A stretch of DNA of 64,000 nt, from positions 12,037 through 76,036 of the forward strand of contig CAKZUK010000010.1 of the NCBI GenBank assembly GCA_937921775.1. Direction: 5' to 3'. The notes beneath the pieces are model-generated. The model was not told where the DNA came from and did no database searches. It saw only the letters and a list, made by a program, of their open reading frames with translations. A program made the position numbers and the translations under genes. How positions within the stretch are numbered: position 1 is the first letter of the stretch; every line of letters begins with the position of its first letter. This document shows positions 47,352-62,304 of this stretch, piece after piece. This DNA is from an uncultured Saprospiraceae bacterium. Lineage in GTDB: Bacteria > Bacteroidota > Bacteroidia > Chitinophagales > Saprospiraceae.

Positions 47352-47912
47352 CTATTTCAACTCTTTCACCTTTACCTTCACATCGTGCTGAATTTTGAGA
47401 AATTCAGCCATATTAAGTAGTTCAAGATGTTGCTCCTTTGTTTCAATATCTAATTCACATTCAAAGACTCCTTTTTTTGTAGGTATACGCATAAAGCTTC
47501 CGCCAAAAAGTTGGTCTTTCTTTCTTGCCTTTCCTTCAGCTAAGGTCTTTATGTCAAAACTAATTTCCTGCAACTGTTCTTGCGGGATATCAAATCTCTC
47601 TTTTCCTTTCACAATTTGTAATGCATCTTCATTAAACTGAATAGCTCCGTTAATTATCGTTTTTTTCCTAAACAATGTCCGAATTGCAGGCAGGATCAAA
47701 AAAATCAGCAAAGCTAAAATTCCCAAATAAACGAACTGAGAATAAGCACCAACGCCTATTTGCGCAATAAATTTATCAACAATTGGAATTCTCCCCATGT
47801 CCATATAGGTCAAGCCCATATAACCCAACAAAGCCGCTGAGAATAAACCTGTTAGAAGGGATCGCTTTCGAATCCTTCTTCTTTTAATAATATTGGCTTT
47901 AAAGCTAAACAT
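47352..47912 (-). CDS. Membrane protein of unknown function (2 TM + ~100-aa soluble C-domain)
   Basis: 186 aa. Basic N-terminus KRRRIRKR, then TM helices LLTGLFSAALLGYMGL and VYLGILALLIFLILPAI. Divergent from the Clp-like gene. Confidence 0.5.
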   Translation of the reverse strand: MFSFKANIIKRRRIRKRSLLTGLFSAALLGYMGLTYMDMGRIPIVDKFIAQIGVGAYSQFVYLGILALLIFLILPAIRTLFRKKTIINGAIQFNEDALQIVKGKERFDIPQEQLQEISFDIKTLAEGKARKKDQLFGGSFMRIPTKKGVFECELDIETKEQHLELLNMAEFLKIQHDVKVKVKELK

Positions 47913-48229: not shown

Positions 48230-51200
48230 ATGGCCTTTCATATTACGATACCTTTTTATGCTATGAAGCTTAAGTTCAATGACGACATTGATCTTAGCAG
48301 TCCTATTTTAGATCGCGATGCCCTGCGAATTAATAAAGCCGTACATATACTTGCCGGTAAATATGCCAACGAATTTCAGCAAAAAATGCTGAACCCCGGT
48401 AAGGTTCATAAGCTTTTTGAAGAGAACCAGCCTGATCTTTATGAAAAGGACAAACTAACTATTTCCTTCAAAGCTTCAAAAGATAAAATTTCATATCCTG
48501 ACTTTGAACTTCAGTTTGATTACTTCTATAAAGAAACCATTAATGGCTTTTGGGGATTTGTTCCTGCTGTTGGCGTGGAATCAGTAGGCGCAGACGAGTC
48601 TGATTTAGTGGAAAATTTGAATGAAGCTATTCGGCTTGAATTTGTGCGTAACCGTAGGCTATCACAAGTAAACAAAATCGTTGCTGTTATTTGGTGGGAA
48701 TCGGTGGAGTTGGTAAAAACAGAAATGCACCTGTCCGTTCCTACACCTCGTGAAATCGAGGATATGAATAATAATTTTCAAGAACTTTTTTTAACTAAGG
48801 TAGCATCAAGACTAATCGTAACCGAAGAAGGAGTCTTTGGACGCGAAAAAGAGATGGAACAATTCGAACGAGCCATCTATAGCAAATTCAATAAAAATGT
48901 ATTGCTAGTTGGTCCTTCTGGAGTTGGAAAAACAGCACTTGTACATGAGCTAGCGAGAAGAACCGATCATCTAGATGATTCTATTTGGTCGACCACTCCT
49001 TCAACACTTATCAAAGAATGCACTGGCGATACTGGCTGGCAGGAAAATCTCGCCAATCTATGCGAAGAGCTGAAACAAACAGATGACTTCTTATATATCT
49101 CCAACCTTATGGAATTGTTTGAAGTAGGTCAATACCAAGGCAATGATGTGAGTATGGCCATGTTTCTAACATCCTATTTGTCTAGAGGTGAGATCAATAT
49201 AATCTCAGAATGCACAGAAGAAGAATTAGCTAAAATTGACTTAAAACAACCAAATTATCTTTCGCTGTTTCAGATCATTCGTATTGACGAGCCTACTGAT
49301 CAGTTGAATGAAATTATTGTAAAAAAAGTAGAGAAGATTGCCGCATCGCGATCTTTGATAGTAGAACGAGAAGCAATAGAAGAAACCTTAAGACTCAACA
49401 AACGATTTACACCATACTCTGGTTTGCCCGGAAAGCCAATTCGCTTTCTAGAAAACACCATCATCAACAAAAGTAAAAACTCAAGCGATAAAACTATTTA
49501 TCGCAAAGATGTCATTCAAGGATTTAGTGAAGAATCTGGTTTGCCACTTTTTATGATTGACCCTGATATTCCGATGGATACCAATGCCATAAAAGGAAAA
49601 TTCAATTCAAATGTTTATGGACAAGAGAAGGCAGTATCTGCCGTAGTTGATATGTTAGCTTCTGTAAAAACGGCATTGGCAAGAACAGGACAACCAATTG
49701 CATCGTTTCTTTTTGTTGGCCCTACTGGTGTAGGAAAAACGGAAATGGCACGTGTACTTTCACAATTCATGTTTGGGAGTAGAGACCGCATGGTTCGCTT
49801 TGACATGAGTGAATTTTCCTCTGGCTATGCGATGGGAAGATTGATTGGTGAGAACTACGACACCTCTGGTTTATTAACTTCAGCTGTACGTCAAAATCCA
49901 TTTTGTGTCTTGCTTTTTGATGAGATTGAAAAAGCGCATCCATCTGTTTACGACATCTTTCTTCAAATATTGGGGGAAGGCCGTTTGACGGATCCTTCTG
50001 GAAAAGTCGTCAACTTTTGCAGCACCATCATAATCATGACTTCAAACATAGGTGCCAGCAAAATGATGAGCAATCAAATTTCAATGACTGGAGGATCGAA
50101 TGCGATCAACAAACAAGATGTATCTGATTTTTTCAGTGGAGCAGTTCAACGGTTTTTCCGACCTGAACTTTACAATCGATTTGATCAGGTGATTCCTTTT
50201 GATCCTTTGGACCAAGACACCATGCGTTTTGTCGTAGAACGTGAAATTGAACTACTTAAAAGTAGAGAAGGTATTCGCTTTCGCAAAATGGATTTCACAA
50301 TAAAAGATGAAGTTCTATACTATCTTGCTCAAAAAGGCTACGACATAAAGTACGGTGCCCGTAAATTACAACGCAGCATCCGCGATGAAATCACAGCCCC
50401 TCTATCTACGGCATTGAACGACTACGGTTTTGAAGATCAACTCATTGTCAACATTGGAATCGCAGATGAGAAGCCAAACATTCAAATAGAATCAGATCCA
50501 CTCGGTGTTGATTTGTTCTTTGAGGAATTAGATAAGATTACTGATGCTGATTATGCGAGTAGCTTGCGCCGTCAGATTATGCGTTTACAACAAGGAAATT
50601 TTTACATCCGACTTCTGAGTCAGATCGATATCATAGAGAACGAAAAAAAGCGACTCAAAGATGATTTTTGGAAAGACAATATTCGTGCAAAAAAATACAC
50701 CAACCTACTAGAGACCAAAGGTAGAATGGACCATTTCCATCAAAACATAGTCAAAATTGAAAACGATCATGCAAATGTTGTAATGGAACTCCAACCATAC
50801 ACTGATCAAATGTCAAAAGATCTAGAGCAATGGAAAGAGGATTTTATCTCTTTAAAAATGGAGGTCTACTCTAGAAAAGAGGAAGGGGCAGATGTTGCTT
50901 TGATTTATATTTATGGTTTTAACCTAGAACCTATCATAAAGTTCTATCGCGAGCTTTTTGACTACAAAGATTACGATTATGAGATGATGAGCATCTGGTT
51001 TAAAAAACAGGATGCTTCAGAAGTGAAAGAAGGTGAGGTAATAGAAAACTACCACATCAGCAACATCAACAAAGACAAAAAATTAGATACGACACCTGCA
51101 CATAAAGGCGACCTTCACTGTGGTCTTCTTTTCCGAGTAGATGGGCCATGCGCCAAGCTTTATTTATCTGGTGAAGATCAATCGATAGAGTGGTGGACTA

Positions 51201-51439
51201 GCGATAAAGAAAAAGAAAGTTTTGTAGTAGAGATAAAAGAAAAAATGGAAACTCCGCCCGGAGGAATTCATAGAAAAGATTATTATTCTGGTTCAAAAGA
51301 TAGAATCGTAAAGCCTGAACATTTAAAAGACTTGAGTTTATCGATTAACCGTGAGATTGGGAAGGGAGATTTGGTAGACACGATTAGCTCTGCTTTGGAT
51401 GATCGGTTTAAGGTTTCTTTGGATTTGGCTTTGGGGTAG
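48230..51439 (+). CDS. Atypical Hsp100/Clp-family double AAA+ ATPase with novel N- and C-terminal domains
   Basis: 1069 aa. D1 has Walker A GPSGVGKT, but the Walker B position reads FLYISNLMEL. D2 is canonical: GPTGVGKT, VLLFDEIEKAH, MTSNIG, FRPELYNRFD, KYGARKLQRSIRDEI. Confidence 0.85.
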   Translation: MAFHITIPFYAMKLKFNDDIDLSSPILDRDALRINKAVHILAGKYANEFQQKMLNPGKVHKLFEENQPDLYEKDKLTISFKASKDKISYPDFELQFDYFYKETINGFWGFVPAVGVESVGADESDLVENLNEAIRLEFVRNRRLSQVNKIVAVIWWESVELVKTEMHLSVPTPREIEDMNNNFQELFLTKVASRLIVTEEGVFGREKEMEQFERAIYSKFNKNVLLVGPSGVGKTALVHELARRTDHLDDSIWSTTPSTLIKECTGDTGWQENLANLCEELKQTDDFLYISNLMELFEVGQYQGNDVSMAMFLTSYLSRGEINIISECTEEELAKIDLKQPNYLSLFQIIRIDEPTDQLNEIIVKKVEKIAASRSLIVEREAIEETLRLNKRFTPYSGLPGKPIRFLENTIINKSKNSSDKTIYRKDVIQGFSEESGLPLFMIDPDIPMDTNAIKGKFNSNVYGQEKAVSAVVDMLASVKTALARTGQPIASFLFVGPTGVGKTEMARVLSQFMFGSRDRMVRFDMSEFSSGYAMGRLIGENYDTSGLLTSAVRQNPFCVLLFDEIEKAHPSVYDIFLQILGEGRLTDPSGKVVNFCSTIIIMTSNIGASKMMSNQISMTGGSNAINKQDVSDFFSGAVQRFFRPELYNRFDQVIPFDPLDQDTMRFVVEREIELLKSREGIRFRKMDFTIKDEVLYYLAQKGYDIKYGARKLQRSIRDEITAPLSTALNDYGFEDQLIVNIGIADEKPNIQIESDPLGVDLFFEELDKITDADYASSLRRQIMRLQQGNFYIRLLSQIDIIENEKKRLKDDFWKDNIRAKKYTNLLETKGRMDHFHQNIVKIENDHANVVMELQPYTDQMSKDLEQWKEDFISLKMEVYSRKEEGADVALIYIYGFNLEPIIKFYRELFDYKDYDYEMMSIWFKKQDASEVKEGEVIENYHISNINKDKKLDTTPAHKGDLHCGLLFRVDGPCAKLYLSGEDQSIEWWTSDKEKESFVVEIKEKMETPPGGIHRKDYYSGSKDRIVKPEHLKDLSLSINREIGKGDLVDTISSALDDRFKVSLDLALG

Positions 51440-51725: not shown

Positions 51726-54578
51726 ATGATAGACGATCTGTATAGAATAACAAGCCACCTGTACAGCAATTCGGTATTTATTATCATTTGCCTCGTGCTT
51801 ATATTCTCCAACCAAATAGATGCGAACTCTGCTCCCTTTCTAATAAAAGAAAGTCAGTCTTACTATGAAATCCGTTCTTCTATCGAAATTCTTCAAGATG
51901 AAAACTATTCTATTGAAGAGATACAAACAGAGGGTATTCAAAATCAATTTCAACGTTTTTCAGAACATAATCTTGATTTAAAAGCGGGACAACTGTATTG
52001 GGGAAAAATAGAGCTAATTAACATGCTTCCTGATGCTGGGAAGCACCTGGAATGGGTACTTCATTTGTCTAGTGGTTTTACTCGGATAGATGTTTTCGTC
52101 CAACAATCTGACGGATCTTTTGAGCAACAATTGAATGGAACATTTGTACCGAATACAAGAAAAGAGTTTACACCAACATCATCAGGTAATTTAGTCAACC
52201 TCCAATTACACCCACAACAAATTAAGCTTATTTATTTTAAAGGGATAAGTGAACGCCCCTCAATAAAGCCTTCATTTTATACAAGATTAGTAGATGCGGA
52301 CAGATTCTACATGGATTTGTATCAAGAACGTACACTCAATTTTCTCTTTATTGGTTTTGTTTCGATGATGATGATTTACAATGTCATTCTTTACTTTTTT
52401 TGGTGGGATAAAAGTTCTCTTTATTATTCTGGATACTTATTTACCATTGTATTTTATTCTTTATTTATCACCCAAGAATTAGCCAATTGGTTCGAACCCA
52501 TTTTATTTCCAGAGCATCCGCAATATCTATATTTTGGAAAGTTAATCATCTACTTAGGTACAATAAGCTATCTCTCATTTCTTAAACAATTTTTGGATTT
52601 AAAAACCTTAGCGCCGAAGTGGAATCGGTATTTTTCTATATTCATTGTTGTAGGTTTGATTTGGATGTTCTTTGATACAACTATGTTAATCTTATCCAAC
52701 TTCAGTTTTGTGGCCACAGATGTTATTACTATTTCATTTGTGTTGTTATTTATTATTAGCAGTTTTGTATTTCTTTTTCCTTTGTATAAGACAAAAGACA
52801 AAAAAGGATACTTTATTATTGCAGGTGTTTTGGTCATGAATTTTGGTTTGCTGGGCACTGCTATATCCCGAACTATGTCGACTGAATTTTCTGTCCTTTA
52901 TTTGAGAATAGGGACCATTTTAGAGATCGTAGTCTTTTCCCTAGGTTTGGCCTTTCGCCAAAAAGAAAATGAAAAAATAAGGCAACAGACACGATTTGAA
53001 TTAGAAAAAACAAAACTACTACAAGTACAAGCTGCTATTGAAAAAAATCGCCTCAAAGAATTAGACAACTATAAGACTAAATTGTATGCCAACATCACAC
53101 ACGAATTCAGAACACCATTAACTGTCATTCAAGGCATGGCAGGACAAATCAACGGTAGATATAAAAAGGAGACACAACTCATTCGACGTAACACTCAACA
53201 ATTACTACACTTAGTCAATCAAATGCTCGAATTAGCTAAACTTGAGTCTGGAACATTAAGACTACATCCACAGCAAGGTGACATTATTTCTTTTTTAAAA
53301 TACGAAATAGAATCCTATATCACTTTGGCAACCAGTTATCATATCGACTTGACTTTTACTAGTTCCTCTGATGTTATCAATATGGATTTCGATATCCAAA
53401 AACTCCGTCGTATTCTTTCCAATTTACTGTCAAATGCCATCAAATTCATGTCCAGTAAGGGAGTCATAAATATAGATGTTACAAAGTACAATCAAATTCA
53501 AACGCCACATATACAAATCAGAGTTACTGATAATGGCGCAGGAATTCCCGCCCTACAATTACCTTACATCTTCGATCGTTTCTATCAGGTAGACACATCC
53601 GCTACTCGTTTGACCGAAGGTACTGGAATAGGCTTAGCACTAACCAAAGAATTGGTCGAACTTATGAAAGGAAACATTGAAGTAGAAAGCCAAGTCGATA
53701 AAGGAACTACCTTTATTATCCAATTACCCATCACACAAAATGCTCCAATTGGGGAAACTGAATATATCTCCTCGGATTCCTTATACAATGAACAAGTAAA
53801 ACCCAATATTTCTCATCCGATTATAAACAATTCAAATCACTCAACAGTTTTGCTCATTGAAGACAATACAGATGTCATTCAATATCTCATTGCTTGTTTG
53901 CAAGATGATTATCAGATACTGACAGCCTTGAACGGGCAAGAAGGTATTCACACCGCAATTACACAAACACCAGATATTATTATCAGCGACGTAATGATGC
54001 CCAAAGCAGATGGTTTTGAAGTAACGCAAGTACTGAAACAAGATGAACGTACCAGCCATATTCCGATTATATTATTAACCGCTAAGGCAGATCAGGAATC
54101 CAAATTGGAAGGCTTAGAAAGTGGTGCCGATGCTTATTTGTCTAAACCATTTGACAAGAGTGAATTGATGATTCGCTTAGCAAAACTGATTGAAATTAGA
54201 AAAAAGCTACAAGTTTATTATGTTGGAAGCGCTTTAGAGATAAGCAATCCGGAGGAAGAGATCTCAAAAGAAGCCGTATTCCTCCAAAAGCTAAAAAGTC
54301 ACGTAGATCAACATTTGGACGATTCCGATTATAACATTGAGGAATTAGCAAAAGACATGTTATTAAGTCGTCAGCAACTCTACCGAAAGACGAAAGCTTT
54401 GACGGGTAAATCTGTTGCAGCCTATGTCCGCCTCATCCGTTTGCATCACGCTAAGAAGTTATTACAAAAAACTCACCTCAACGTTTCTGAAGTAGCGTAT
54501 CGGGTTGGATTTAGTGATCCAGGTTATTTTTCAAAATCCTTTTCTGAGGAATTTGGCTATGCACCTAGTGTGGAGTAA
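51726..54578 (+). CDS. Hybrid sensor histidine kinase / response regulator / AraC-type transcription factor with 7TMR-DISM sensor
   Basis: 950 aa. 7TMR-DISMED2-like N-domain and 7 TM helices. H-box ANITHEFRTPLT, N-box LSNLLSNAIKF, G-boxes DNGAGIP/GTGIGLAL. Receiver LLIEDNTD...ISDVMMPKADGFE...LTAK. HTH VSEVAYRVGFSDPGYFSKSFSEEFG. Confidence 0.9.
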   Translation: MIDDLYRITSHLYSNSVFIIICLVLIFSNQIDANSAPFLIKESQSYYEIRSSIEILQDENYSIEEIQTEGIQNQFQRFSEHNLDLKAGQLYWGKIELINMLPDAGKHLEWVLHLSSGFTRIDVFVQQSDGSFEQQLNGTFVPNTRKEFTPTSSGNLVNLQLHPQQIKLIYFKGISERPSIKPSFYTRLVDADRFYMDLYQERTLNFLFIGFVSMMMIYNVILYFFWWDKSSLYYSGYLFTIVFYSLFITQELANWFEPILFPEHPQYLYFGKLIIYLGTISYLSFLKQFLDLKTLAPKWNRYFSIFIVVGLIWMFFDTTMLILSNFSFVATDVITISFVLLFIISSFVFLFPLYKTKDKKGYFIIAGVLVMNFGLLGTAISRTMSTEFSVLYLRIGTILEIVVFSLGLAFRQKENEKIRQQTRFELEKTKLLQVQAAIEKNRLKELDNYKTKLYANITHEFRTPLTVIQGMAGQINGRYKKETQLIRRNTQQLLHLVNQMLELAKLESGTLRLHPQQGDIISFLKYEIESYITLATSYHIDLTFTSSSDVINMDFDIQKLRRILSNLLSNAIKFMSSKGVINIDVTKYNQIQTPHIQIRVTDNGAGIPALQLPYIFDRFYQVDTSATRLTEGTGIGLALTKELVELMKGNIEVESQVDKGTTFIIQLPITQNAPIGETEYISSDSLYNEQVKPNISHPIINNSNHSTVLLIEDNTDVIQYLIACLQDDYQILTALNGQEGIHTAITQTPDIIISDVMMPKADGFEVTQVLKQDERTSHIPIILLTAKADQESKLEGLESGADAYLSKPFDKSELMIRLAKLIEIRKKLQVYYVGSALEISNPEEEISKEAVFLQKLKSHVDQHLDDSDYNIEELAKDMLLSRQQLYRKTKALTGKSVAAYVRLIRLHHAKKLLQKTHLNVSEVAYRVGFSDPGYFSKSFSEEFGYAPSVE

Positions 54579-55667: not shown

Positions 55668-58058
55668 ATGAAAAACATCACCTTTACATTCAGTTTAATT
55701 TTTTTCATATTTTTTCAAAGCAATTTAATTGCACAGTTTCAATCCCAGTGGACTAATGTTAGCCCTAATTACCAAGTCAACAATGACCCATTCGGATTAG
55801 GATTCTATGTCGTGGATGAAAACATAGCCTGGTCAATCCCGCTTTGGCTCAATGGCCAAATCAATCCAAAAATCAGTAAAACGACCGATGGTGGAGCAAA
55901 CTGGAGTATTTATTCGCCAGACCTACAGGCTTCGGATTTAGTTCCAACCATTGTATATGCCCTCGATGAAACCAGAGCGTGGATAGGCACACAACAGATG
56001 CCTAGTGGTAATTATGGTTCTGTTATGAAAACCACTGATGGTGGAAACTCCTGGTCGACACTTGATATTCCATATGTCGAGGATCAGATTCCTTATGCTA
56101 TCCATTTTTACAATGACATGGAAGGGATTGTGGTTGCACAAGATTTTTTTACGAGCACCAACCATGTTGACATTTACAAAACGGTCGATGGTGGACTAAG
56201 CTGGCAGGTCGTATCGCCAAGCGGTTTATTACCTGCTGAAATTATGTGGCTTTGGTCTGGTGAACATATCATGGAACGGATAGGCGACCATTTATGGATG
56301 GGCACAGGAAAAGGTCGTGCGATGCATTCTACAGATAGGGGAGAGACCTGGAGTATTGTTGAACTAGGGTTTAGCTCTACCAGAGGAGTCAACTCCGTAG
56401 CCTTTATGAATGAACAAACTGGTGTTGCACTCACTTCTTATGACTTAGATATCCTAAATAATTCTGCTTGGATAGATGAGAGTAGAACCTTGGCGGTAAA
56501 AACGACAGATGGTGGGGCAAGTTGGAATCCAATCAATATACCTCCTCTATTGGAACATATCGAATACGTTCCTAACTCAGGTGGCGTATTTATTGGAGCC
56601 AGTGGATATACAGGATATAATCAACATTTTATTTCGAAAGATATGGGAGAGACTTGGAAAGAATATAGTTCTCCGGGAATGATTAACATTAATTTTACAA
56701 GTCCGGAATCTGGCTTTGCAACTGTCTTAGGCTTTGCTTATGGTATTTTCAAATACGAGGGAGAGCCTTTATTATTTGACGAAAGTCCCTTGTCTGCTCC
56801 CAAATGGGTCGGTCAAGCAGATCAACTGACTCCTGCCTTTCATACTATTAACGATGTACATATTATTGATACCGATATGGTCTGGGGCCTCACCAGTCCT
56901 TTCCTTAGTCAAATTCCTAATTCTAATCCTTCCGTAGTTCGTACAATTGATGGTGGGGATAATTGGGAAGAATTGCCGATAACAATAGCTCAAGGCCGAC
57001 GTACATTTGACATACATGCCATGGATGACGAGACTGCTTTTGTTACAAGTAACAATTTGGGGTCAAGCAAGGAGTTGTTAAAAACTTCCGATGGTGGTAA
57101 TTCTTGGAATGTAGTGAATTCAAACGATGCATGTGGGGGATATGTTCACTTTTTCAATTCGCAAGAAGGTTTAGTTATCAATGACGATTTAATTGAAATC
57201 ACTAATGACGGAGGCATTTCCTGGACGGTACCTGATCTCAATATTCCTAATCTTTCGAATGGAGATATTTTTGATAAAAACTTTGCAGTTGAAAACACCA
57301 CAGAAGCAAGAGGAGATAGCTTTTGGTATTTGACGAGGAATAACAAAATCATTCGAACCAATGACAAAGGAGAAACCTGGGAGGTTTTTAATACGCCTGA
57401 AAGGTTTTGGTCTATAGCAATGCGTGACAGTTTAAATGGATTAGCTGTCGCTATCGAATATGATATCTATATCCACAGAAGCCATATTTATAAAACAGCA
57501 GACGGTGGTGAAACTTGGGAAATAGCAGCTATTATGGATGGCGATTTCACTGCTTTTATGTTGGAATATATAGAAGGTAGTGAAGCTTACATGGGATCGA
57601 ATTATGGAAATAGTGCGACCTGTTTTACTATTGACGATGGAGCTACCTGGGAACTTATTGAAGGAGCACCTTCTACTGGTATTTCAAAATTCCTTGATCC
57701 TGAGACGGGATGGGTAGTTGGCACTAGACGTTATACGGGGTTCTCACCACTCATCTACAAATGGGACGGCGAAGCTTTTCCCCAATTAATTGTTGGTATC
57801 GAAGAATCCGTTTCCCTTATGAATATTCAGGTTTTTCCAAACCCAATCAAAGATTATATCACGATCAATCTAAATGATTTAAATCGGGGAAAAACGACCA
57901 TCGATTTACTAGATGTTAATGGGCAACTAATCAGAAGTACTCTAACAAATGAAAACATATATACTTTCAAAAACTTAGCAGATTTGCCCTCTGGTAACTA
58001 TTTCATTAGAGTTATTATTGACAAAAAATTAAGGACTTTAAAAGTAATCAAACAATAG
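55668..58058 (+). CDS. BNR/Asp-box repeat beta-propeller protein with T9SS C-terminal sorting domain
   Basis: 796 aa with a signal peptide. About 12 Asp-boxes: TTDGGANWS, TTDGGNSWS, TVDGGLSWQ, STDRGETWS, TTDGGASWN, SKDMGETWK, TIDGGDNWE, TSDGGNSWN, TNDGGISWT, TNDKGETWE, TADGGETWE, IDDGATWE. C-terminus VFPNPIKDYITINL...GNYFIRVII...LKVIKQ is Por_Secre_tail-like. Confidence 0.85.
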   Translation: MKNITFTFSLIFFIFFQSNLIAQFQSQWTNVSPNYQVNNDPFGLGFYVVDENIAWSIPLWLNGQINPKISKTTDGGANWSIYSPDLQASDLVPTIVYALDETRAWIGTQQMPSGNYGSVMKTTDGGNSWSTLDIPYVEDQIPYAIHFYNDMEGIVVAQDFFTSTNHVDIYKTVDGGLSWQVVSPSGLLPAEIMWLWSGEHIMERIGDHLWMGTGKGRAMHSTDRGETWSIVELGFSSTRGVNSVAFMNEQTGVALTSYDLDILNNSAWIDESRTLAVKTTDGGASWNPINIPPLLEHIEYVPNSGGVFIGASGYTGYNQHFISKDMGETWKEYSSPGMININFTSPESGFATVLGFAYGIFKYEGEPLLFDESPLSAPKWVGQADQLTPAFHTINDVHIIDTDMVWGLTSPFLSQIPNSNPSVVRTIDGGDNWEELPITIAQGRRTFDIHAMDDETAFVTSNNLGSSKELLKTSDGGNSWNVVNSNDACGGYVHFFNSQEGLVINDDLIEITNDGGISWTVPDLNIPNLSNGDIFDKNFAVENTTEARGDSFWYLTRNNKIIRTNDKGETWEVFNTPERFWSIAMRDSLNGLAVAIEYDIYIHRSHIYKTADGGETWEIAAIMDGDFTAFMLEYIEGSEAYMGSNYGNSATCFTIDDGATWELIEGAPSTGISKFLDPETGWVVGTRRYTGFSPLIYKWDGEAFPQLIVGIEESVSLMNIQVFPNPIKDYITINLNDLNRGKTTIDLLDVNGQLIRSTLTNENIYTFKNLADLPSGNYFIRVIIDKKLRTLKVIKQ

Positions 58059-60762: not shown

Positions 60763-62304
60763 TCAGTTCATCTTAGACAAAACAGAAGCTGGTTGAATGA
60801 ACATTCCAGTAGACTTCGTATCACCAGTAGCCTTACCAGTATCCTTCAATAATTTATAAACTTCCTTCGTCGTTAAATCCGGTTGAATGCTTTTCATCAC
60901 ACCAACCAAGCCAGCAACATAAGGCGTAGCCATAGAAGTTCCATTAAATGTATTGTAAGTGTTATCTGGAGTAGTAGAGTAAATTTTCACACCTGGCGCT
61001 GCAATTCCCATATCAATATTATTGACGGTATTGGAAAAAGAAGCGCGATTCAATAGCGTATCAACTGCCGCGACAGTGATCACGCCCTTTGCAGAAGCTG
61101 GAGCAAAACCAGTGGCATCCGCATTGCTATTTCCTGCGGCAACAATTACAATCGCACCTTTATTATTACAATACTTCACCGCATCGGAATAAGCTTTTTG
61201 GCGACTACTATTAGAACGACCACCTAAAGACATTGAAATAACATCAGCTCCATTATCAGCAGCCTCCAGCATTCCATTGATGATCCCCCTTTGCGTTCCT
61301 CCACCAAAATCAGCAAGGACTTTAATCGAAGTTAATTCTACAAATTGATTGTTAGGAGAGAAAGAAGCAACACCAATTCCATTATTTGAAATAGCTCCAG
61401 CAATACCCGCACAATGCGTTCCATGTCCTTTTACATCTTTATCATATTTACTGGAAAGTGATTTATAATTAGCTGCTAAGTCTTCATGTTTTGCATCAAC
61501 ACCAGTATCCAAAATAAAAACGCGAGCTTTCTTTTTCGGTTTTATATTTTTGCTTTTAATCAAACTATAAAGATCAGCGACTTGCATTTCATCAAATCCC
61601 CATAACTCAGATAGGGCAGGATCGTTGATGCCATAATCCTTGTTTCGCTTGGAAGGCTCTAGTGTCGACTTCATCGGCTCCACATTGATGGTTTCATTTT
61701 CTTCCACCCAATCCACTAATTCATTTTGCGAAAGCAAAGCCTTAATTTTCGAAATAAGATGTTCTTTTCCTTCAGGAATGTTTATCACAAAATAATTATC
61801 CAACTCAGTTGTTGAAGATTGCTCCATTTCAAAAGCAGCCTCAAAACTGAGATCGTATTTTTGTAAAACCCGACTCAATTCTTTGATAGAATGCCCTTCA
61901 TCAATTTCTACCAGTAATTCCCAATCCTGATCTAATTTGAGATCGGTACGGGCTATTTCTGAAATGCTAGTCTGCGGAAAGGTCTGCTCTAAAACCTCCT
62001 TAAAGTAAAAATTATAAATAAGCGCTGTACAAAGTCCCATTAATAAGAAGACCTTGGGATTTTTTCGAATCATCGAAAAACCAGCTGAAACACCACTAAT
62101 GATCAAAAGATCACGAAACATCGTGCTAAATTTGTAGCTTATTTCGGCATCAGCCATAAACAAGGAAACGCCATAAGCTACTATAGCAGCAAAGAAGACG
62201 AAACGAAGCAAAGAGCTCAATTTCTCGTTATGCTGGAAATAAAACCAACCAACTAAGCCAGTGAAGGCGACGATATAACTAAGGGGATAAAGTTGTTCTA
62301 ACAT
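60763..62304 (-). CDS. S8 (subtilisin) family serine peptidase with N-terminal 4-TM anchor
   Basis: 513 aa. Catalytic triad motifs ILDTGVD (Asp), GHGTHCAGIAG (His), GTSMATPYVAG (Ser). Four hydrophobic helices in aa 1-100, with a propeptide-like region between. Confidence 0.9.
   Translation of the reverse strand: MLEQLYPLSYIVAFTGLVGWFYFQHNEKLSSLLRFVFFAAIVAYGVSLFMADAEISYKFSTMFRDLLIISGVSAGFSMIRKNPKVFLLMGLCTALIYNFYFKEVLEQTFPQTSISEIARTDLKLDQDWELLVEIDEGHSIKELSRVLQKYDLSFEAAFEMEQSSTTELDNYFVINIPEGKEHLISKIKALLSQNELVDWVEENETINVEPMKSTLEPSKRNKDYGINDPALSELWGFDEMQVADLYSLIKSKNIKPKKKARVFILDTGVDAKHEDLAANYKSLSSKYDKDVKGHGTHCAGIAGAISNNGIGVASFSPNNQFVELTSIKVLADFGGGTQRGIINGMLEAADNGADVISMSLGGRSNSSRQKAYSDAVKYCNNKGAIVIVAAGNSNADATGFAPASAKGVITVAAVDTLLNRASFSNTVNNIDMGIAAPGVKIYSTTPDNTYNTFNGTSMATPYVAGLVGVMKSIQPDLTTKEVYKLLKDTGKATGDTKSTGMFIQPASVLSKMN

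Follow-up and report, generated by a model that had tools for sequence, protein, structure and literature searches.

A Clp-type double AAA+ ATPase with a release-factor-like C-terminal module in the class Saprospiria

The Hsp100/Clp unfoldases of the ClpA/ClpC type combine two tandem AAA+ modules, D1 and D2, with an N-terminal Clp_N domain and an [LIV]-G-[FL] loop for docking on ClpP, a loop also found in the ClpP partners ClpE and ClpX. A coiled-coil M-domain is carried in D1 by ClpB, ClpC and Hsp104, and the Hsp100s ClpG and ClpK, which have an M-domain and an active D1, are set apart by family-specific extensions at their N- and C-termini that are unrelated to release factors (RFs). Here we describe a gene in a 64,000-nucleotide stretch of DNA from an uncultured Saprospiraceae bacterium (contig CAKZUK010000010.1 of assembly GCA_937921775.1, positions 12,037 to 76,036; the whole stretch is called the window below), the product of which joins a Clp-type double AAA+ core to a non-Clp N-terminal domain and to a C-terminal module that is homologous to a bacterial class-I RF, as judged mainly from its predicted fold.

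Release factors are put to use in bacterial ribosome rescue and quality control, as in RF2-ArfA, ArfB and PrfH. On ssrA- or Ala-tagged products, AAA+ proteases (ClpXP, for example) do not act until release has taken place. We know of no bacterial AAA+ unfoldase with an A-site-shaped module of its own. The type-II AAA+ unfoldases Drg1 and Rix7, brought to their target by ribosome-binding adaptors, extract factors from pre-ribosomes. In eukaryotic ribosome-associated quality control, a type-II AAA+ unfoldase, Cdc48, is brought to the ribosome by the RF-like adaptor Vms1/ANKZF1, and in bacteria PrfH (also RFH), a truncated RF1/RF2 paralogue that is linked to RtcB and damaged ribosomes, lacks domain 1 and has kept the GGQ domain (PMC6514570). 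A survey of RF-domain architectures in bacteria, which tracks the GGQ domain, makes no mention of a fusion between a Clp protein and an RF (PMC6514570), and no description of such an architecture was found in our literature search.

The C-terminal module and its predicted release-factor fold

The gene is a single, intact open reading frame (ORF) of 1069 codons that is initiated with ATG (coordinates of all features are collected in Table 1), and a protein identical to its product is present in public data (P0001). An earlier reading of the letters, made without database searches and referred to here as the sequence-only reading, had taken the product for a Clp-type unfoldase with two AAA+ modules, the first of them degenerate, whose C-terminus carries a class-I RF-like module that is degenerate as well and possibly directs it to the ribosome. 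Each of the motifs it quoted is present in the ORF at the residue or nucleotide assigned to it, and the overall claim stood up to a refutation test that had been set beforehand. The extra C-terminal module does exist; its start was misplaced, lying at about aa 755 (nucleotide 50492), some 23 residues before the aa 778 originally proposed.

For structure prediction, aa 755-1069 were aligned with the corresponding segment from 33 diverse relatives sharing 28-37% identity with the query. The resulting AlphaFold2 model has a mean predicted local distance difference test score (pLDDT) of 90.5 and a predicted template-modelling (TM) score of 0.82, and the five models, all calculated without templates, agree with each other (pLDDT 88-90.5). 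When the model was compared with the PDB using Foldseek, the 37 best matches were all class-I RFs (RF1, RF2, mtRF1/mtRF1a and PrfH), with RF2 at the top (E=7e-7, probability 1.00); the best TM score, 0.49, was obtained with the free, closed form of Thermus thermophilus RF2 (2ihr), and the first match to any other protein had an E-value of 0.2 and a probability of 0.04.

Sequence profiles point in the same direction. Pfam returned no match, PCRF included, for aa 741-1069 of the window protein itself. Across 34 family members, PCRF (PF03462) was matched below threshold in eight (best E=2.5e-4) and was the only Pfam family matched by more than two; in one relative it reached 20 bits against a gathering cut-off of 24, with profile positions 7-88 falling on module residues 49-126, the helical part that holds an F-W motif. 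An RF profile built from 68 metagenomic RF1 sequences together with E. coli RF1 and RF2 was then aligned by hhalign with a 120-member alignment of the module, giving E=1.4e-3 over 244 colinear columns at a probability of 17%; reversing the profile lowered the score from 33.0 to 17.1, and none of 12 block-shuffled profiles scored above 29.9. Deletion of RF domain 2 from the profile abolished the signal, and deletion of domain 3 led to a small gain (best E=3.9e-4). The alignment pairs IYG...FY of the module with RAGTGGDEA...RMY of the RFs, and iEf.i.G.c..LfLk.E.G.q.W with vIa.I.G.gaYs.LKfESG.HRVQRV; the three motif pairs that had been matched to RF2 by eye are the same ones that hhalign aligned, in colinear order. 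With the lone sequence of E. coli RF1, the match was local (22-37 columns, E of about 0.02). The family profile of the module had no match among PDB sequences at E<=10, nor did the module consensus sequence match anything in Pfam, so that the RF similarity is too weak at the sequence level for plain hidden Markov model searches.

The RF-like C-terminus proposed from the letters has thus been upheld both by predicted structure and by profile comparison. It might still be argued that structure prediction has created the likeness artificially, or that the folds match by chance, and such an explanation would sit well with profile scores that stay below threshold, with a family profile that finds no PDB sequence and with a consensus that matches no Pfam family. 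We consider it very improbable, given the agreement of five template-free models, a run of 37 consecutive top matches drawn from one protein family, and three independent weak sequence signals, each on the RF domain expected and in the expected sequence along the module, that exceed their controls.

The predicted fold allows the module to be divided according to the domains of RF1 and RF2. It opens with a helical bundle resembling RF domain 1 (helices at module residues 3-34, 36-55, 57-61, 63-97 and 105-129), in which F59 and W60, the F-W motif shared with RF domain 1, are nearly invariant. The following part has the strand-helix-strand-strand-strand-strand topology of domain 2 and includes the E-x-G motif of the strand that precedes the recognition loop. 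Whereas RFs continue for some 140 residues after domain 2, only about 65 residues remain in the module, and these have the topology of domain 4, with three short strands and a 21-residue helix (module residues 262-314). Domains 2 and 4 are linked by TPPGG (in EKMETPPGG), at the site where RFs bear the GGQ domain 3, which is itself an insertion in the codon-recognition domain (PMC6514570). From the topology and length of the model we conclude that domains 1, 2 and 4 have been kept, as domain 1 and a superdomain 2/4 in the order found in RFs, and that the GGQ domain 3 was excised at its insertion point; this loss is argued from the model because a profile without domain 3 gained little. An alternative hhalign match of low confidence (E=0.064) pairs pRR.ie...kD..kInRE with RIRTYNfPQgRvTDHRInLTL, and in this low-confidence alignment the invariant R271 and D280 of the module fall on an Arg and an Asp of domain 4 common to RF1 and RF2.

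The residues by which RFs act have fared differently. GGQ is absent from the whole protein by motif check, and the RF-1 domain (PF00472) is unmatched in this protein and in the 34 members. SPF is absent too, and no PxT occurs in the domain-2-like part; the earlier statement that GGQ, SPF and PxT are all missing needs correction only for a single PxT in the C-terminal part, PYT at aa 856, which lies within the helical region. The loop between the last two strands of the domain-2-like part is variable, with no conserved PxT or SPF loop, the GTGGDEA tip of helix 5 stands opposite a seven-residue gap in the hhalign alignment, and the RIHTS strand motif is absent. The elements that read stop codons are therefore not conserved, and a module that has lost domain 3, and with it the peptidyl-tRNA hydrolase, would be incapable of releasing a peptide by itself. 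It further differs from RF1 and RF2 in being the C-terminus of an AAA+ subunit and not a free factor. PrfH, as a truncated paralogue serving a special state of the ribosome, is a parallel among RFs, with a weak Foldseek match (9mor_A, E=0.11); the two truncations are, however, opposite, the module having kept domain 1 and lost GGQ.

The most conserved stretch of the C-terminal third is an acidic helix at the junction between the D2-small domain and the RF-like module (aa 756-770, DPLGVDLFFEELDKI, window positions 50495-50539, with the family pattern DPLGxDLLxEELDKI), which might act as a fixed hinge or in docking.

The Clp-type core and the N-terminal domain

In the core of the protein, Pfam recognises AAA_2 at aa 488-653 (E=1.5e-48) and ClpB_D2-small at aa 660-732 (E=2e-12); around aa 202-290, in D1, there are generic P-loop matches only. 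The best NCBIfam model is that for ClpA (TIGR02639), which spans aa 200-727 with 331 bits against a cut-off of 993, and none of the other curated equivalog cut-offs was reached (ClpB, 308 against 1232; TssH/ClpV, 249 against 885; ClpG, 239 against 1900; ClpK, 229 against 1900). Sequence matches in the PDB, comprising ClpC, ClpB, ClpA, ClpE and Hsp104, with ClpC as the best, are confined to aa 198-770, and BLASTP aligns aa 202-652 continuously with E. coli ClpA at 30% identity. ClpA is itself without an M-domain, and no insertion of that size is seen in the alignment to it, in agreement with the observation made from the letters that no ClpB-type M-domain, of the kind present in D1 of ClpB, ClpC and Hsp104, lies between D1 and D2. 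The product belongs to the Hsp100/Clp type-II AAA+ unfoldases, as a member peculiar to its lineage; with every curated Clp equivalog cut-off missed and no description in the literature found, the suggestion that no described Clp subfamily has this architecture holds good.

The residues of D1 and D2 were counted over 120 full-length relatives. D1 has kept its Walker A motif. At the Walker B position, within the peptide DFLYISNLMEL at aa 286, S291-N292 align on the D-E pair of ClpA D1, and in all 120 relatives this pair reads [RSTNH]-[NS], an acidic pair never being seen. In the BLASTP alignment S345-L346 lie on the Arg-finger pair R-R of ClpA, and T-G-D on its pore-loop K-Y-R; none of the relatives has the acidic Walker B pair, the Arg fingers or the Tyr of the pore loop. 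D1 had been suspected of catalytic degeneracy on the basis of its Walker B position, and the whole family bears this out. Because the P-loop is kept, D1 has probably retained ATP binding and a part in keeping the hexamer assembled, probably as a ring that binds nucleotide without hydrolysing it. Just past the lost pore-loop tyrosine there is a Trp, W270, that is invariant in the 120 relatives (G-W-Q, aa 269-271, window positions 49034-49042); this Trp could stand in as an aromatic that contacts the substrate, or its role could be structural.

D2 had been described as a textbook Hsp100 D2, and this description is apt: it has both Walker motifs, both sensors, an Arg finger and a pore loop with an aromatic residue. 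No change was seen among the 120 relatives at N606 (sensor 1), R650 (Arg finger) or R711 (sensor 2), the pore-loop aromatic is Tyr or Phe in 110, and the motifs VLLFDEIEKAH (aa 560), MTSNIG (aa 603), FRPELYNRFD (aa 643) and KYGARKLQR (aa 707) complete the set. By its motifs D2 is a complete motor.

The docking-loop Gly is required for docking on ClpP. At the position of the ClpA IGL and ClpC VGF loops this protein reads NQISMTGG, as reported from the letters; the [LIV]-G-[FL] motif is not found in it, the tripeptide being I-S-M as in the rest of its clade. Among the 120 relatives the position reads [ILV]-G-W in 53, and ISW, ISL, ISF, INL or similar in the others listed; the surroundings of [ILV]-G-W presumably resemble the loop region of ClpC. 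This protein is unlikely to dock on ClpP, and some members of the family might do so; since ClpP coupling is unlikely here, the protein would be a remodeller and not the component of a protease. The family may be split at this position into members that bind ClpP and members that are independent of it.

Judged by its sequence, the protein descends from ClpA/ClpC-type Hsp100s and works like them, having two tandem AAA+ modules at 30% identity to E. coli ClpA, no M-domain-sized insertion relative to ClpA, and an intact AAA_2 and ClpB_D2-small pair. It departs from them in the N-terminal domain, which is not Clp_N, in the catalytic residues of D1, in a D2 pore loop that is five residues shorter, in the ClpP loop, in the 315-aa RF-derived module at its C-terminus and in an equivalog score of 331 bits where TIGR02639 asks for 993. 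ClpG and ClpK are comparable as Hsp100s with terminal extensions peculiar to their families.

The first 199 residues appear to be specific to the family. Clp_N was matched neither in this protein nor in 34 relatives, and alignments with ClpA, ClpB and ClpC begin at aa 198-200, consistent with the lack of a Clp_N repeat noted in residues 1-200 by the sequence-only reading. Pfam gave no match for aa 1-199 at E<=10 in this protein and none at E<=0.04 in the 34 members, and no match of HicB type. The mean column identity of the domain across the family is 53%, and its ratio of non-synonymous to synonymous substitution rates (dN/dS) is 0.13 in comparison with a relative of 82% identity, a sign of purifying selection. 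An AlphaFold2 model has an overall pLDDT of 63; the part predicted with confidence is a strand-strand-strand-strand-helix core at aa 70-140. A Foldseek search with this low-confidence model found no matches at E<0.05. The family profile of the domain had one match in the PDB, 2yzt_A (TTHA1756), which is weak (E=0.17) and falls on aa 101-141, modelled as strand-strand-strand-helix with pLDDT 81-93. We take TTHA1756 to be a UPF0150/HicB-like protein. The HicB/UPF0150 pattern seen in the letters is thus matched on the exact motif that had been flagged, and amounts to a weak hint at this E-value and with no Pfam match of HicB type.

Distribution, selection and genomic neighbourhood

A search with the full-length protein returned more than 120 clusters at 90% identity, 1056-1105 aa in length apart from one 982-aa partial sequence, and covering 97-100% of the query. 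Four of them are close relatives and the others share 45-51% identity with the window protein; the source names are Saprospiraceae, Lewinellaceae, Phaeodactylibacter and metagenome-assembled genomes of Bacteroidota. Clusters in such number, with a shared length and architecture, do not bear out the word "orphan" that had been attached to the gene, as far as phyletic spread is concerned. An exhaustive search with the profile of the C-terminal module gave 347 clusters at 50% identity, 217 of them at E<=1e-10; in the long matches (1029-1141 aa) among the 150 listed, the module extends from about aa 730-830 to the C-terminus, the shorter matches look like gene fragments, and no free-standing or differently fused module was seen among the matches listed. 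This search superseded a word-index search with the C-terminal 329 aa, which came back empty despite the presence of the identical full-length protein, a limit of the method.

Scanning of species-representative genomes located the gene in at least 101 genomes, all of the named ones belonging to the class Saprospiria or to unclassified Bacteroidota; Phaeodactylibacter xiamenensis KD52 and P. luteus KCTC 42180 are the cultured carriers. The 81 loci that were clustered contain 87 ORF pieces of the gene, in essence a single copy each, and no RF relatives were found by a scan of viral contigs. The family is restricted to the class Saprospiria of the Bacteroidota, and its distribution is vertical and housekeeping-like.

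In a codon alignment with the 82%-identical relative, dN/dS is 0.05 overall and 0.04-0.14 in those parts where dS could be estimated (the N-terminal domain, D2 and the RF domain-4-like part); in the remaining parts dS is saturated and dN is 0.07-0.18. For the RF-like parts taken singly, dN/dS is 0.14 in the domain-4-like part, and dN is 0.07 and 0.18 in the other two, at saturated dS. Each of the three RF-like parts appears to be under purifying selection, and the dN/dS and dN values argue that all four parts of the protein are functional. A Clp-type motor and an RF body that neither hydrolyses nor reads codons are covalently joined, conserved and constrained across a bacterial class.

Clustering of the ORFs over the 81 loci shows that the neighbours are mostly housekeeping genes, such as shikimate kinase (aroK), YajC, YbbR, DUF429, SDR and dihydrolipoyl dehydrogenase. 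Genes for ClpP, for a type VI secretion system or for co-chaperones were not seen within about 8 kb of the gene in the window, as had been stated from the letters, and ClpP is not among the conserved neighbours in the 81 loci. The sole neighbour that is widely shared is a Peptidase_S8 subtilase with a signal peptide, which comes immediately after the gene and in its orientation in about 25 of the 81 loci (Lewinellaceae and Phaeodactylibacter); the median gap between the two genes is about 8 nt, and in five further loci the ORFs overlap, which suggests that the gene and the subtilase are co-transcribed; the arrangement may reflect a functional link or lineage synteny. In the window the next gene downstream encodes instead a 7TMR-DISM hybrid regulator, and the Por_Secre_tail signal of the BNR/Sortilin-type protein after it confirms that the window comes from a member of the Bacteroidota. 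The cluster to which the 185-aa predicted membrane protein of the window belongs is found about 300 nt upstream and on the opposite strand in 16/81 loci, among them that of the 82%-identical relative. No Rfam family reached its gathering score anywhere in the 64-kb window; promoter-like sites around the gene are not commoner than in shuffled sequence, and terminator-like sites number 9 against 3.3 expected, none of them marking an obvious gene end.

Table 1. Position of the Clp-RF gene, of its parts and motifs, and of neighbouring genes (window coordinates; Clp-RF, the AAA+ gene with the release-factor-like module)
Feature	Position	Strand	Basis or remark
Complete gene: Clp/Hsp100-type double AAA+ ATPase with non-Clp N-domain and C-terminal release-factor-derived module	48230..51439	+	ORF list, translation
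N-terminal domain, aa 1-199, family-specific, not Clp_N	48230..48826	+	
Possible HicB/UPF0150-like strand-helix motif, aa 101-141	48530..48652	+	Weak profile match
D1 AAA+ module, aa 200-450	48827..49579	+	Aligned to ClpA D1 and TIGR02639 (aa 200-727)
D1 Walker A, GPSGVGKT, aa 228	48911..48934	+	G, G, K, T invariant 120/120
D1 Walker B position, LYISNLME, SN replacing ClpA D-E	49091..49114	+	ClpA alignment
D2 AAA+ module and D2-small domain, aa 451-754, intact motor ring	49580..50491	+	Pfam; ClpC, ClpB and ClpA matches in the PDB, to about aa 745
D2 Walker A, GPTGVGKT, aa 497	49718..49741	+	Motif check; very highly conserved in family
D2 pore-1 loop, LIGENYDTSGLL	49841..49876	+	ClpA alignment; 5 residues shorter than ClpA GAPPGYVGFDQGG, aromatic kept
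D2 Walker B, LLFDEIEKAH	49910..49939	+	D564, E565 invariant 120/120
ClpA IGL / ClpC VGF docking-loop position, NQISMTGG, aa 615	50072..50095	+	ClpA alignment
Release-factor-derived module, aa 755-1069	50492..51436	+	AlphaFold2, Foldseek, PCRF, hhalign
RF domain-1-like helical bundle, aa 757-883, conserved F-W motif (KDDFWKD)	50498..50878	+	AlphaFold2, PCRF
RF domain-2-like beta/alpha region, aa 889-1003	50894..51238	+	Model, module residues 135-249
RF domain-4-like strands and C-terminal helix, aa 1010-1068	51257..51433	+	Model, hhalign
Quoted motifs: NGFWGF...RLEF at aa 105; KDDFWKDNIRAKK at aa 810; ADVALIYIYGF... at aa 887; VDGPCAKLYLSGEDQS at aa 970		+	Motif check
Divergent upstream gene, 185-aa predicted membrane protein	47352..47912	-	No Pfam match
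Downstream gene, 950-aa 7TMR-DISM sensor/histidine kinase/receiver/AraC-HTH (helix-turn-helix) hybrid regulator	51726-54578	+	
BNR/Sortilin-type protein with Por_Secre_tail (type IX secretion system) signal, after the 7TMR-DISM regulator	55668-58058		
S8 protease with N-terminal hydrophobic segments, 9.3 kb downstream	60763-62304	-	
S8 subtilase directly after the Clp-RF gene in other loci			L004, L006, L014, L017, L023, L028, L039, L042, L066, L079, others

Possible roles on and off the ribosome

In RFs, domain 1 faces the GTPase and L11-stalk side and contacts the L11 stalk and RF3, and domains 2 and 4 fill the decoding site of the 30S subunit. Because these domains remain in the module, a ribosome-docking adaptor that is independent of codons is the simplest reading, and targeting of the module to the ribosome is plausible. 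The module would act as a built-in adaptor that brings the hexamer to the A site or the factor-binding site of the ribosome irrespective of the codon; D2 would then use ATP to pull on something bound there, be it a factor that has become stuck, one involved in hibernation or assembly, or the subunit interface, and so extract or unfold it or destabilise the particle; and stalled, hibernating or immature ribosomes would be remodelled or cleared in consequence. To this combination of a docking adaptor with extraction or remodelling driven by D2 we would give nearly an even chance. Cdc48-Vms1 and Drg1/Rix7 are its hypothesised conceptual and functional analogues; Vms1 belongs to another fold, that of eRF1 (RNase H-like), shows catalytic activity and is joined to Cdc48 by non-covalent binding, whereas the module has a bacterial fold, is inactive and is covalently fused to its motor.

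Several observations weigh against ribosome docking followed by extraction. The sequence similarity to RFs lies under curated thresholds (20 against 24 bits for PCRF; an hhalign probability of 17%), and all of the residue sets that RFs use for reading codons are gone, so that the docking surface may serve a partner other than the ribosome. By analogy with ClpA and ClpB, the module would hang from D2-small on the exit face of the Clp ring, and it is not obvious that a substrate on the ribosome could be passed from there to the D1 entrance, a real difficulty for this explanation. No translation-related gene, whether for a translation factor or a GGQ protein, is conserved as a neighbour in the 81 loci, and in the 53/120 relatives with an I-G-W tripeptide at the ClpP-loop position, some might still dock on ClpP.

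The main alternative, which we regard as less likely, is that the RF module was exapted for a task off the ribosome, either as a platform for binding clients or adaptors or as a regulatory or oligomerisation domain of a general or specialised protein remodeller, much as Clp_N, the M-domain or the extensions of ClpG serve elsewhere. The loss of every codon-recognition element together with the catalytic domain would be expected of such a history, the acidic junction helix beside D2-small, as the best conserved part of the module, would fit an intramolecular role, and the neighbourhood is without translation genes. What the module has kept argues the other way: three RF domains in their native order and arrangement, with a best TM score of 0.49 to free, closed RF2; apparent purifying selection on each of these three parts; and an invariant Arg and Asp which are paired, at low confidence, with conserved residues of RF domain 4. 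A whole A-site-shaped body has been preserved, and this would most simply mean that the binding site was preserved with it.

The remaining explanations draw on the AAA+ core. As a derivative of ClpA or ClpC, the protein could be the ATPase of a ClpP-dependent protease, to which the RF-like module would deliver ribosome-associated or nascent proteins for degradation; its closest relatives in sequence, ClpC, ClpA and ClpE, are partners of ClpP, and the [ILV]-G-W found at the ClpC VGF/ClpA IGL position in 53/120 relatives makes a ClpP-coupled role possible for these members. This explanation is improbable, in that over half of the family, the protein described here among them, has another residue in place of the loop Gly (ISW, ISL, INL, ISM), no clpP gene was found nearby, and six modules of 315 aa on D2-small would be expected to crowd the face on which ClpP docks. 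There is very little to recommend a place in anti-phage or conflict systems, where the RF-like module would serve to decoy or to sense effectors that target translation: the PADLOC models PDC-M37B and DolB do match D2 (E of about 1e-31), but the matches are limited to the generic ClpB-like AAA_2 region (aa 451-617), and essentially one gene per locus (87 ORF pieces, 81 loci), a class-wide and constant architecture and housekeeping neighbours outside any defence-island context are at odds with such a role, which we hold to be very improbable.

Whatever its target, the family illustrates the clean removal of a GGQ domain from the codon-recognition domain that is its host, and so informs models of RF evolution. 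Were the module still to dock on ribosomes, the protein would be the first Clp-type mechanical, ATP-driven ribosome remodeller in bacteria, a natural case of a release factor reduced to a pure targeting device, and a covalently fused bacterial counterpart of the eukaryotic pairings of AAA+ motor and ribosome adaptor such as Cdc48-Vms1 and Drg1. Since two cultured species have the gene, the family is open to testing, the prediction being a Clp-type ribosome remodeller in bacteria. For the Saprospiria this would mean, at something short of an even chance, a ribosome-directed AAA+ machine of their own, in which a dead and codon-blind RF body sits in the A site or factor-binding site as D2 extracts a protein or pries ribosomes apart.

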